Source: Octopus vulgaris
Taxonomy: Eukaryota
DNA: 64,000 nucleotides
Assembly: GCA_951406725.2 (NCBI GenBank)
Contig: OX597831.1
Coordinates: forward strand, 39,804,001 to 39,868,000
Direction of reading: 5' to 3'
Shown here: one piece after another, positions 35,077 through 62,900 of the stretch
Layout of the letters: the number at the start of each line of letters is the position of its first letter
How positions within the stretch are numbered: position 1 is the first letter of the stretch
Notes under the pieces: model-generated
What the model was told of the DNA's origin: nothing
Seen by the model: the letters and a program-made list of their open reading frames with translations, nothing else
Databases searched by the model: none
Made by a program: the position numbers and the translations under genes

Positions 35077-35497
35077 AAGGTGGCGAGCTGGCAGGAATGT
35101 TAGCATGCCGGACGAAATGCTTAGCGGTATTTCGTCTGCGTTACGTTGTGAGTTCAAATTCCGCCGAGGTCGACTTTGCCTTTCATCCTTTCGGGGTCGA
35201 TAAATTAAGTACCAGTTACGCACTGGGGTCGATGTAATCGACTTAATACCTATGTCTGTCCTTGTTTGTCCCCTCTGTGTTTAGCCCCTTGTGGGTAATA
35301 AAGAAATAGGTATTTCGTCTGCCGCTACGTTCGGAGTTCAAATTCCGCCGAGGTCGACTTTGCTTTTCATCCTTTCGGGGTCGATTAAATAAGTATCAGT
35401 TACACACTGAGGTGATATAATCGACTTAATCCCTTTTTCTGTCCTCGTTTGTCCCCTCTATGTTTAACCCCCTTGTGGGCAATAAAGAAGTAATAAG
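35077..35497 (+). mobile_element. SINE family C (Meta-domain-like), internally duplicated copy with little divergence
   Basis: AGGTGGCGAGCTGGCAG head, B box GAGTTCAAATTCC; body repeated from about 35309. Confidence 0.85.
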
Positions 35498-59280: not shown

Positions 59281-60440
59281 CAAGGTGGTATCAAAAGGTT
59301 CTCAGACTAGTTCTGTAGCGTGCCAACAGATGGCAGCACACAGTTGCGTGCACTGTGAAAGCTAGCAGAGACCTTCAGGAGGCAGTGTGCTGAGTGACAT
59401 CACTGCGTTTAATTTGGAAGTTGGTGAAATTTGTGTTATCTTGATCACGTGTATGCTGTAGTCTGTGATTTTGTTATGGGCAGGAATAAAGAGCAAATGT
59501 GAAATTTTGCCTTAAACTTGGGAAGTCTGCTATGGAGGCATTGATTATGCCTCAGCAAGCTTATGGCGGTGAGGCAATGGATTGTATACAATGCATCATG
59601 TGGCATGCACACTTCAAAAGCGGAAGACCGTCCCTGGAAGACGTTGAGGGATCTGGAAGACCTGCCATGAGTTGTCCCACCTGGAAATGTGGTATTGTGA
59701 TCACGTGACCGACCAGGCTATCAGATGTTGTAACACATCGCTGGTCAGAATGCGCTTTGCATTGTTTTAGCCTTCAAACGACGCCACCACGCTGGCTAAG
59801 CGAGCAGGCCTACAGAAGAAAGAGTGAGAGAAAGTTGTGGCGAAAGAGTACAGCAAGGATCGCCACCACCCCCTGCCGGAGCCTCGTAGAGTTTTAGGTG
59901 TTTTTGCTCAATAAACACTCACAACGCCCAGTCTGGGAATCAAAACCATGATCCTACGACCGCGAGTCCACTGCCCTAACCACTGGACCATTGCGCCTCC
60001 ACATGGTATTGTGCAATAGGAATTTATTCCCCACGGCGAGACTGTCAACTGGTTCTTTGGAGTGTGAAGAATTGGATTCTTCACCAAGCTTTCCTCACTT
60101 ATGAGTGTCTTGCCGAAAACAACATGGTATCGCTTCTGCACCCATCCTATTCACCAGATTTAGCACCTGTGGGCTTCCATCTCTTCTCAGAGATAAAAAA
60201 AAGTTCAAAGGTTGCCGTTCTAACACCATTGTTGAGATCCAGAGCAAATCGCAGAACGTCCTCCACTCGCTTACCGAAAGCAAATTCCAGGCCAGATTCC
60301 AAAAGTGGCAGGAACACTGCCACCAGTGTGTTGCTGCACTAGGTAACTATTTCGAAGGAGATGTTGTTAAAGCTTAGGAAATTTTTTTTTTTGTTTCATT
60401 AAACATAACTAGTCTAGTAACCCTTTGAAAAACCACCTTG
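59281..60440 (+). mobile_element. Internally deleted mariner element with TIRs and TA TSD
   Basis: TA-CAAGGTGGTATCAAAAGGTTCTCAGACTAGTT ... AACTAGTCTAGTAACCCTTTGAAAAACCACCTTG-TA; KFCLKLGKSA..W..FKSGR.SLED..SGRP and HPSYSPDLAP...GNYFEGD. Confidence 0.9.
59700..60003 (-). mobile_element. tRNA-derived SINE (family D) nested in the mariner; 10-bp TSD
   Basis: Minus strand GGAGGCGCAATGGTCCAGTGGTTAGG...GGTTTTGATTCC; TSD TGGTATTGTG at 59690-59699 and 60004-60013. Confidence 0.85.
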
Positions 60441-60674: not shown

Positions 60675-60895
60675 AAGGCATTGAGCTGGCAGAAATGTTG
60701 CATGCTGGGCTTAATGGTATTAGTGGTATTTCATCTGTCTTTACGTTCTGAGTTCAAATTCCACCAAGGTCGACTTTGTCTTTCGTCCTTTCGAGGTTGA
60801 TGAATTAAGTACTAGTTGCATCCTGAAGTCGATCTAATCGAATGGCCCCCTCCCCCAAAATTTCAGGCCTTGTGCCTAGAGTAGGAAAGATTACT
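60675..60895 (+). mobile_element. SINE family C
   Basis: GAGCTGGCAGAA..., GAGTTCAAATTCC, tail GGCCTTGTGCCTAGAGTAGGAAAGATTA. Confidence 0.8.
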
Positions 60896-61124
60896 ATAGA
60901 ACCTTTGATTTACATCTGGTTGGGCTTCTTTCACTGACCTTTCTTGCTTTGCATTTAAGGGATAAATTAAGTACTAGTTGTATCCTGAAGTCGATCTAAT
61001 CGAATGGCCCCCTCCCCCAAAATTTCAGGCCTTGTGCCTAGAGTAGGAAAGATTACTATAGAACCTTTGATTTACATCTGGTTGGCCTTCTTTCACTGAC
61101 CCTTCTTGTTTTGCATTTAAGGGA
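60803..61124. repeat. Tandem duplication, period 162 bp
   Basis: 60803-60962 is repeated at 60965-61124, covering a SINE tail plus unique flank. Confidence 0.9.
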
Positions 61125-61438
61125 GTTTCCACTTCCATTCCACTTGTTTTTGACAGCAAGCAAATGATTTGTTACCCAGGAAATATCAGGAAACAGCAAC
61201 ATTGTAGCTCAGTGCAGAATCTAAGCATTGAGAAACATGTAGATTCACTTGCAACACATTGGACAGTGCTCTAGGATAATAGAAGACACCTTGTCCAAGG
61301 AACTGTGCTGTGAAGCTCAATCTGAAACCACATGATATTGTGCCACATAAAAAAGCATTAACCCTTTCGTTACTATATTTCTGACCAAAACACACCCCTC
61401 ATGAGTTTCAATTAAATTCCAAATAATAATAATGCTAG

Positions 61439-61507
61439 CAGGCCTTGCTACCCTAGACTGATGCCGAGCAAGACTCAGAAACATGCATGTCTCTAGGTGC
61501 TGGCCTG
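61439..61507 (+). ncRNA. Extended type I hammerhead ribozyme motif (variant core)
   Basis: Stem I CCTAGA/TCTAGG plus distal CAGGCC/GGCCTG; core CTGATGC; stem II GAG/CTC; GAAA; palindromic stem III ACATGCATGT; GTC cleavage triplet. Confidence 0.7.
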
Positions 61508-62900
61508 GCCGTTGGGAGTGCTTGTCTCCCCTTTGTAAATATAAGGACACAAAAAATGTGTCAAAGCCGACAGAAAGCGTCGACGCTTCCTAGGGCTAAA
61601 TCGCGGTGGTGTGATTCCCTTTACGGGACTGTCACGTTAAGTTGACAGTATAAAACCACTCTATCGTTCCACCACGGCTCATATCTCTCTGTGATATTTA
61701 GAAATTTAATATTTCTAATAATGCTTGCATTGTTGAATTTTTCCCATTGTGCCATTCGAAAACAAGAAGCGGTTTAAAGTCTTTATACGTTCATTCAAAA
61801 ATTGGGCTTTCACTACTGCGTCCAGACAGACATGCATATACACTCGTGCACACATGCACATCCACACACGCTAATGTGCATGTGGTGTGTATGCAATTGC
61901 AATGTCGTTAACATTTTTGTTCAAGCAAATATTCCTTGACGAGAAGGCTGGTAATTAAAATATACCCAAGGTGGATGCACCTCAGATATAATTAACTGAG
62001 ACTTTTAAGATGGGAAATCGCTACATTAACACGTAATCTATGCATGCATATGCATAAAACACACATTGCGTTGAAACTTCTCCTCCTCCTCCAGTACAAG
62101 ACATTAGCAAATTTTGTAATTATTCTAGTAAATGTGTATATTTAATTAAAGAACTCAGGCACTATGATTAGTGCGTGTGTGGTTGGGTTAAGGGGCGGGG
62201 GCAGTTAATTAAAACTTTTATTCCTAATGAATTTCTTCAGGTACAATTTATAAACACGCACATGCACGTCAAAAAAATGTGCACGTTTGCACACGTATGA
62301 AAAAAAGCACGCATTCAGAAACACATACATAGAAGTGGATGTATTACATACAACTGCAGACACACACACACACAACACAAAAGGATGTGTACATTAAGAC
62401 ATACAAACGAATGCGTATGCATTGACACATACACAACACGCACAAAAAAACGCACATATAATTGCATATGCACATATGCATACAAATGTGCTTAGATGAA
62501 TACGCACACAAATGAATGCATGTGCGTATAAACAAAAGGTTGCGGTACACAAATATATAGATACAAATGATCGCCTATGCACACAAGCGTGCATACATAA
62601 ACACATGTACTAATGGATGCATACATACGCACACAAACATGCACACATACATACACAACTATGTATGGACATGTAACTGCTTATATAGAAATGAATGTAT
62701 ATGTATACACACACAAGCGAAACAAAAGTTAAGTTTACATAAACACATACATGCAGAAGATTACATGCACACATACGCGTGCACGCGCATGCACAATAAG
62801 ATGCACGACAGCGAAAGAAATAGAAAAGTGCAAATTGTGACTCTTACTAAATCATGCATGTGTTTGTGCGCATGTGTGTCCCTTTGTGTGAAAGGTTCTA

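Follow-up and report, generated by a model that had tools for sequence, protein, structure and literature searches.

Introduction

Metazoan retrozymes without long terminal repeats (LTRs) are described as repeats with a unit of 150–450 bp (350–390 bp in mussel) and a GC content below 45%, and Penelope-like elements (PLEs) are regarded as a strong candidate for their mobiliser in the available text of PMC7229834 (Cervera and de la Pena 2020) and likewise in that of PMC7761336. It is not settled which enzyme mobilises retrozymes in animals, and the accessible parts of these papers argue for PLEs from co-occurrence and homology. Here, a stretch of 64,000 nucleotides from Octopus vulgaris (contig OX597831.1 of GCA_951406725.2, positions 39,804,001 to 39,868,000; called the window), contained in an assembly of 2.8 Gb, was analysed. 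A preliminary description had reported a hammerhead ribozyme heading a structured unit in it. The locus is a 5'-truncated copy of a 355-bp non-coding repeat, named F1, with a predicted self-cleaving hammerhead of type I in its RNA; the repeat is likely inserted by the reverse transcriptase (RT) and endonuclease of a PLE. Judged from sequence, F1 is likely a new retrozyme family of the non-LTR kind with a variant hammerhead, belonging to a clan of at least four families (F1 to F4) probably mobilised by PLE machinery.

PLE insertions are recognised by an inverted 5'-truncated copy, a one-ended tail and microsatellite targets (10.1101/2021.04.23.441226; PMC3846280). In an anole, the PLE protein nicks AT-rich DNA on both strands and begins cDNA synthesis at two internal points, between which the tail lies (PMC11167929). 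Vertebrate retrozymes have been interpreted as non-autonomous PLE derivatives on the basis of co-occurrence and of homology to the pseudo-LTRs (pLTRs) of PLEs in Xenopus; PLE relatedness in organisms beyond their own set was not examined, as the authors state (10.64898/2026.07.22.740005). MRC1 and other non-autonomous Chlamys PLEs have 3' ends that generally resemble those of an autonomous family, and their clade is mostly without hammerheads (10.1101/2021.04.23.441226).

The clan resembles the metazoan non-LTR retrozymes of PMC7229834 in having one type I hammerhead per unit of 350–362 bp, a period held by all four families, a GC content of 39–43%, tandem and solo copies, no open reading frame (ORF), a highly self-paired monomer and co-occurrence with PLEs that carry minimal hammerheads. 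Unlike those retrozymes, the clan is known from sequence alone, with self-cleavage and circular RNA being predicted, and the pair 10.1–11.1 at the base of stem II is relaxed: C·A or U-A in F1, A-U together with a U3-A8 core in F2, G-C in F3, and A·G or A·A in F4. For the clan, the present analysis documents 3' ends that are internal and fixed, arms in head-to-head order and target-site duplications (TSDs), unlike the available account of PMC7229834. These features resemble PLE insertions (10.1101/2021.04.23.441226, PMC3846280, PMC11167929), with which the clan shares 5' truncation, head-to-head inversion, a one-ended tail, variable TSDs, AT-rich or (TA)n targets, a hammerhead upstream of two 3' ends and AC-rich sequence at the first end. 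The clan differs from the described PLEs in that it has no RT/GIY-YIG ORF, its tail is about 46–59 bp against 30–40 bp, its hammerhead is extended with a long stem I and not of the minimal PLE kind, and a homologous autonomous pLTR was not found in 58 stretches.

Results

Family F1 and its insertion signature

A DNA search of the assembly gave 63 matches from the 40 scored of 2647 candidates, and 40 of the matches, spread over many contigs, were near-full-length with 87–92% identity. Exact patterns matched 140 hammerheads with an intact core and, in the case of one 31-mer pattern for the hairpin at end A (see below), 705 sites; the reversed-pattern controls gave 0. F1 copies in the genome probably number in the thousands. 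The 355-bp unit has a GC content of 42.0% and one hammerhead. It is non-coding and has neither RT nor LTRs; no separate search was aimed at a primer-binding site or a polypurine tract. In 4 of 77 non-redundant loci, two complete hammerheads are spaced by one period. The multicopy nature, the tandem arrangement at some loci and the covarying hammerhead bear out the earlier suggestion of a non-coding ribozyme retroelement of the retrozyme type. It had also been proposed to see whether copies are tandem or continue into an RT ORF, and only the former was seen among the 77 F1 loci. Contrary to what had been supposed, the hammerhead does not head the mobile unit. It is internal to the unit, and the fixed ends are the 3' ones.

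Most F1 arms end at one of two points. Of 106 arm ends, 44 fell at end A (unit positions 219–238) and 49 at end B (unit positions 282–290), which is 93 of 106 together, and loci chosen only by the hammerhead pattern gave 22 A, 14 B and 6 other among 42 ends. The 3' ends are fixed at two sites about 55 bp apart and the 5' ends are scattered, which is variable truncation. Within about 4 nt of the hammerhead cut site, 1 of 155 F1 pieces started and 0 of 155 ended.

The two ends are combined in a strict manner in head-to-head pairs. Sixty such pairs from the four families comprised 38 A+B, one B+B, no A+A and 21 with an unclassified end, so that 38 of 39 classifiable pairs were A+B; in F2–F4 and in the first F1 set, one arm per pair was fixed by the query and the other arm was free. 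F1 contributed 14 A+B pairs out of 22, with no A+A or B+B, and the remaining eight had an unclassified end (several were interrupted or cut by the edge of the locus). A+B pairs made up six of nine in F2, which also gave the single B+B pair, eight of eight in F3 and 10 of 21 in F4, for which the windows for the ends had been set too narrow beforehand. When F4 was re-read from the printed ends (A at 215–237, B at 274–285), 17 A+B and four B+other pairs were obtained among the 21. The ends of F2 lie at unit positions 235 and 294, and the tail between the two ends measures about 55 bp in F1, 59 bp in F2, 46 bp in F3 and 51 bp in F4. We infer that one start site, A or B, was used per strand. PMC11167929 reports that the two strands do not differ in start site in vitro, so the strict one-of-each pattern found here is left unexplained by that paper.

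TSDs of at least 9 bp that are not simple sequence (9–15 bp, variable in sequence) flanked 7 of 20 insertions of the inverted form and 6 of 57 with a single orientation, compared with 22 of 1000 swapped-flank controls. The 25 nt past ends A and B are 81% AT, (TA)4 occurs in 34 of 95 of these flanks, and F3 lies almost always within (TA)n. The genomic scars likely point directly to PLE machinery as the mobiliser.

The hammerhead and its variant core

Every motif listed in the preliminary description was re-read at its position, including stem Ia, the outer stem, the core, stem II, GAAA, the palindrome, GTC, the downstream hairpins and the flanking repeats. The type I topology was confirmed by the coordinates, by a descriptor scan and by covariation in the family. 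A relaxed hammerhead descriptor, allowing any base at position 9, found a single site in the window and none in 100 locally shuffled 64-kb windows on both strands. The cut is predicted between 61491 and 61492.

Statistics of the core were taken from 30 F1 copies not chosen by core pattern. Position 9 is A in 28 of 30, and the C of the window copy is damage at the level of this copy. At position 10.1, 19 copies have C and 11 have T, and at position 11.1, 28 of 30 have A, so the Y·A at the base of stem II is a variant of the whole family. Both doubts raised earlier about a variant core are settled in this way. All 12 core bases are intact in 18 of 30 copies. The window copy departs from the invariant core at A9, and F1 departs from a paired 10.1–11.1, which is usually G-C. 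From the conserved core described in PMC3088659, the A9-to-C change likely inactivates the window copy.

Covariation was measured in 49 aligned F1 copies against a structure of 19 pairs, from which two outer-stem pairs had been excluded where the alignment was shifted. Pairing was kept in 96.0% of 930 cells, compared with 92.9% after shuffling, and controls with a slid structure were 22–43% paired. Changes on both sides were found at six pairs and in 52 cells, compared with 20.9 cells in shuffled data, and none of 500 shuffles reached this level. Four of the six pairs of stem Ia changed on both sides, and the middle pair of stem II is A-U in 25 and G-C in 20 of 49 rows, with GAG/CTC becoming GGG/CCC in other subfamilies. 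Stems I and II of the hammerhead therefore covary in F1, as the proposed covariation check had sought, but the covarying cells are differences among few subfamilies and so represent few independent events, and relatedness inflates such counts. Stem I is extended by pairing of unit positions of about 320–355 with about 70–108, where 9 of 42 pairs showed changes on both sides among the 35 copies with the upstream part. In the fold of the natural cut-to-cut monomer, a long stem closes a multibranch of hairpins and the two ends are brought together. Loop II starts with CAA or AAA and is A-rich in all four families. The suggested Rfam Hammerhead_1 check gave no hammerhead match for the window copy or for the intact-core F1 copy L010.

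Three sister families

F2 was found when the F1 covariance model matched a different repeat in L079. It has a period of 362 bp and 2964 candidates, and its copies are mostly 95–98% identical (L079:3-292 and L131-L150; for example, G000:C2:172255019-172256355). Its identity to F1 is 58% over 329 columns. The core reads UUGAUAA, and the basal pair of stem II is A-U. The swap to U3-A8 in this core is known as a functional covariation of the hammerhead (PMC3088659; PMC4209133). Rfam gave no hammerhead match for an F2 copy. F3, found by the descriptor scan, has a unit of 353 bp, 2199 candidates, a canonical core and G-C at the base of stem II; its copies are 98–99% identical and form short tandem arrays in (TA)n (L157:3307-3868, L171-L190). 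It scored 32.2 bits (E 1e-6) against Rfam Hammerhead_1 (RF00163), below the gathering score of 34, and it is the youngest of the four families. F4, found by the clan profile, has a unit of 350 bp, 2227 candidates, an AUA cleavage triplet and a palindromic stem III (L164:11-262, L192-L216); the base of stem II is mostly A·G, otherwise A·A, and 10.1–11.1 is unpaired.

All pairs of families are homologous (z of 8.7–14.7 over shuffles), and the four families share a conserved fold of the monomer. Among seven monomers of F1–F3, both partners have changed at 27 of the 60 pairs in the consensus. Since the three sisters came up by chance within some 0.8 Mb of retrieved DNA, more families probably exist. 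The count of four is a lower bound. At L129:915-4088, near an F2 copy, there are open frames, which we take to be gag-pol of an LTR retrotransposon.

These families bear on whether the ribozyme is still active. It is conceivable, although rather unlikely, that F1 is a PLE-mobilised repeat whose hammerhead no longer cleaves and whose fold is kept as a protein-binding or template structure. The C·A at 10.1–11.1 in 19 of 30 copies, the full 12-base core in only 18 of 30 and the competing folds of the hammerhead would suit such a loss, copy ends do not accumulate at the cut site, and cleavage is dispensable for PLE insertion in vitro (PMC11167929). However, the core is the commonest state in every subfamily while the surrounding stems swap pairs, and the sister families keep CUGANGA, or the compensated UUGANAA, together with GAAA and an NUH triplet at about 58% identity, which drift would not preserve. 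The scattered core changes fit decay after insertion.

PLEs in the genome as candidate helpers

Matches to GIY-YIG gave 6136 candidates, of which 150 were scored. A young PLE family (L091:1430-6672, G000:C16:20834929-20840171) has an upstream frame of 359 amino acids (aa), a frame of 781 aa with RT and GIY-YIG, and many near-identical copies. Its pLTRs are direct repeats of 456 bp, its two 3' ends lie 40 bp apart in (TA)n, and its 3' region contains internal repeats of about 90 bp. The pLTR carries a conserved minimal hammerhead-like motif with a U3-A8 core and a palindromic stem III, as in F2, and a weak stem I. In a second PLE family (L064, L155, L156, L163), a minimal hammerhead is located in the 3' end and the tail is about 36 bp. 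Intact PLEs bearing hammerheads thus co-occur with the clan in the same genome. One GIY-YIG match, in L078, looks like a host exon and not like a PLE; the exon presumably belongs to an SLX1-type nuclease.

The search for a partner covered 30 GIY-YIG loci and 8 and 20 longer stretches with blastn, the covariance model R1, the descriptor and the clan profile. It turned up only independent insertions of the sister families. The two PLE ends are not homologous to the clan (z of −1.4 to 2.5). An F4 copy upstream of the PLE ORF in L164 was considered as a 5' pLTR and was rejected, being a head-to-head insertion of its own from a tandem family. The class of the helper, PLE, is well supported, and no family is named as the partner.

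It would follow from a different explanation that the copies are truncated pLTRs of an autonomous PLE not found here and that the tandem units are by-products and not an independently propagating element. In its favour, the copies carry insertion marks of the PLE type, solo or partial copies make up most F1 loci, with tandem whole hammerheads in only 4 of 77, the search reached 150 of 6136 GIY-YIG candidates and 58 stretches, and frog retrozymes are homologous to PLE pLTRs (10.64898/2026.07.22.740005). Nevertheless, copies that run upstream of the hammerhead or past end B stay in the 355-bp unit, and no ORF-bearing flank is shared among the 77 F1 loci. In addition, the long stem shows covariation between its 5' and its 3' arm around the unit, which requires continuity from unit to unit, and the period of 350–362 bp is kept in four families. 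This explanation is considered improbable.

Tandem arrays and flanks

The F1 arrays observed are short, up to about four units, and are dispersed over many contigs. In head-to-head copies the outer ends of the arms are unequal and fixed and the centres are variable. Ordinary satellite DNA, or a hairpin DNA transposon (miniature inverted-repeat transposable element), in which the hammerhead is incidental, might be suggested by the tandem arrays and by the inverted-repeat copies in TA-rich sites. Such a dispersal is not that of a satellite, the arms are not terminal inverted repeats, the TSDs are 9–15 bp with variable sequence, and the A+B asymmetry largely contradicts this very improbable explanation. 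Least probable of all is the 5' end of a TAA-associated long interspersed nuclear element (LINE) capped by the ribozyme, which had been offered because of the short TAA run just before the window copy: a LINE 5' end would show the opposite of the fixed 3' and ragged 5' ends of F1, F1 arms stop 170–230 nt past the cut site at two fixed points with unrelated AT-rich or (TA)n DNA downstream, no frame of at least 100 aa overlaps the window copy, and its 52-codon frame has no Pfam match.

The sequence difference between tandem units, between opposite arms and between loci is 7.5%, 6.6% and 11.2% in F1, 2.4%, 2.4% and 3.1% in F2, and 0.64%, 0.40% and 0.59% in F3, respectively. Because tandem units resemble each other about as closely as opposite arms do, circle and multimer templates both fit. 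Neighbouring units of one F1 array (L023:1455-2075) differ at many subfamily-diagnostic sites, and some units in L028:667-2085 are without the start of the hammerhead domain. The mosaic arrays suggest template switching between different RNAs. Haplotypes inspected by eye contained mosaics and no clear break at the cut site.

A TATA-like (TA)n stretch lies at unit positions of about 316–330, some 35 nt upstream of the F1 hammerhead domain, and PLE pLTRs have been reported with a similar putative promoter (PMC3846280). Part of the unit was present in 20 of the 24 sequencing-run rows listed, under four species labels and with no run recorded as RNA. In contigs of four runs guessed to be RNA, the depth over the 3' hairpins was far above that over the hammerhead (L052:1552-1731, unit positions of about 75–250). 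The uneven depth may come from 5'-truncated copies in host transcripts or from further related families. The unit was covered unevenly in these contigs, no joint or end was informative on cleavage or circles, and they were not used as evidence.

The window copy and its surroundings

The copy in the window is a solo insertion of 285 bp (Table 1). Compared with the full unit, it is without positions 287–355, about 69 bp that hold a hairpin, the TATA-like stretch and the 5' arm of the long stem. The structured unit once estimated at about 275 bp is real, but its full length is 355 bp. Seven base states are private to the window copy among 67 aligned copies compared. The repeats at 61427-40 and 61716-29 had been taken as a possible TSD. 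A real TSD is present, with an exact repeat of only 10 bp that overlaps both ends of the element, and the last 2–3 bases of its left copy, overlapping the 5' end of the element, would represent microhomology.

The fold of 61435-61725 has a z of −3.58, and 0 of 200 shuffles were equally stable. The view of a highly structured unit holds, while the list of local hairpins has to be corrected in two places. The palindrome at 61575-88 is present, but its perfection depends on a base private to this copy. The bases of the GGGAG/CTCCC hairpin are likewise present, but the hairpin is probably minor in the full unit, where the upstream arm that is absent here pairs with them. This local hairpin is predicted by the three-family consensus fold and might represent an alternative conformation. 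The 52-codon frame was rejected as coding, because it has no Pfam match and is broken by a stop or frameshift in other copies. The window copy is probably inert, and it is unremarkable on its own.

Table 1. Features of the F1 copy and its flanks, in positions of the window
Feature	Position	Strand	Remarks
F1 copy, 5'-truncated, solo	61435..61719	+	Unit positions 1-286 of 355; 89.5% identity to natural monomer L017:1502-1856
TSD, left copy TAATAATGCT, 10 bp	61427..61436	+	Exact repeat with 61716..61725
Type I hammerhead domain	61439..61507	+	Outer stem 61439-44/61502-07, internal loop, stem Ia 61452-57/61492-97
Core CUGAUG-C	61458..61464	+	Position 9 (61464) is C; family has A; likely inactivating
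Stem II	61465..61477	+	C61465 opposite A61477; GAG/CTC 61466-68/61474-76; loop CAAGA
GAAA 61478-81, palindromic stem III 61481-90, GUC ending 61491	61478..61491	+	Stem III is ACA/UGU around UGCA
Hairpin run of the monomer multibranch domain	61546..61649	+	Kept with compensatory changes in sister families
Fixed 3' end A, after ..ACAACCAC-type sequence	61657..61665	+	Unit positions ~224-232; window copy reads past end A
Tail of ~55 bp between ends A and B, closing with hairpin TTAGAAAT..ATTTCTAA	61660..61719	+	Window copy stops at B
TSD, right copy TAATAATGCT	61716..61725	+	First 4 bases overlap the 3' end of the element

Elsewhere in the window, two-copy tandem repeats were seen at 60799-61124, 35126-35489 and 30103-30644, with periods of 162, 184 and 266 bp, respectively, and the first two look like one abundant short interspersed repeat that recurs in many of the fetched loci. 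At 18144-22318 and 25635-27012 there are (TA)n and (TG)n arrays of kilobase size, which have a strong GC skew. A stretch of 120 open codons at 59980-60342 on the + strand contains the motif YSPDLAP, which we take to be typical of mariner-type transposases.

Discussion

For the mobilisation of F1 by PLE machinery, the following mechanism is proposed. A tandem donor locus would be transcribed, hammerheads one unit apart would cut out a monomer of about 353 nt with both ends in one long stem, and a host ligase could circularise the monomer. A protein of a PLE would bind to the region of the hairpins and nick both strands of AT-rich DNA about 10–15 bp apart. The cDNA would be primed at two internal sites, one per strand, end A marking the first internal start of reverse transcription and end B the second. 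The template would be the circle or an uncut multimer, because the cDNAs read through the cut site. Completion of both arms would give the head-to-head form, and a single arm would give a solo copy such as that in the window. For the latter, synthesis would have begun at B, passed the cut site and come to a halt 57 nt beyond it, with joining by microhomology, and the copy would have acquired the A9-to-C change afterwards.

Several points weigh against this account. On the side of the insertion, the query determined one arm per pair in F2–F4 and in the first F1 set, and no clean TSD is present at most solo copies (51 of 57). The tail of about 46–59 bp is longer than published tails (30–40 bp) and than that of the 781-aa PLE (40 bp), a pLTR homologous to the clan was not found in 58 stretches around GIY-YIG matches, and the RVT_1 match of the 781-aa frame is just under the Pfam cut-off (28.9 against 29.6 bits). 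On the side of the ribozyme, the covariation appears to reflect few independent events, Rfam recognises neither F1 nor F2 and scores F3 under the gathering threshold, and most F1 copies have C·A at 10.1–11.1, where mispairing was a ground for rejection in PMC3088659. When the F1 hammerhead is folded to minimum energy, part of its core enters a competing pairing, which might reflect an off state or indicate weak activity. Moreover, the anole PLE inserts in vitro with no need for hammerhead cleavage (PMC11167929), and eight of nine frog retrozyme dimers did not cleave (10.64898/2026.07.22.740005).

A bolder proposal can be made tentatively. The clan may be an old group of at least four ORF-less, viroid-sized hammerhead RNAs that live as independent parasites of PLEs and are recognised by RNA shape, because no detectable sequence is common to the clan and any PLE end examined. 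A conserved hairpin array would set the two starts 46–59 nt apart on a circular template. The states at the base of stem II (C·A/U-A, A-U with U3-A8, G-C, A·G) would then form a series of active core variants missed by descriptors and Rfam. This proposal is possible, and it is put forward with much less confidence than the PLE-mediated insertion itself.

The vertebrate retrozymes (10.64898/2026.07.22.740005) are similar to the clan in that dependence on PLEs is concluded and solo monomer copies are dispersed over the chromosomes. In the octopus, the insertion signature provides the evidence and no pLTR homology turned up in the 58 stretches, unlike in Xenopus, whose insertion ends are not analysed in the accessible part of that paper. 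Chlamys PLEs such as MRC1 (10.1101/2021.04.23.441226) are also non-autonomous passengers of PLEs, with pLTRs and head-to-tail multi-copy insertions; for the clan, on the other hand, no homologous autonomous pLTR was found in the 58 stretches, and it bears hammerheads. No report of the clan, or of the tail signature in retrozymes, was found in the literature consulted, which consisted mostly of open-access texts and abstracts and did not extend to Repbase or Dfam, and novelty is not proven by this.

The retrozyme copies described here show the pattern of two starts, one per strand, that has been reconstituted in vitro for a PLE. In each of the four families, the two sites have been located with a precision of a few bases, and one family, F3, is very young. 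The relaxed base of stem II suggests that hammerhead censuses demanding that pair undercount such repeats.

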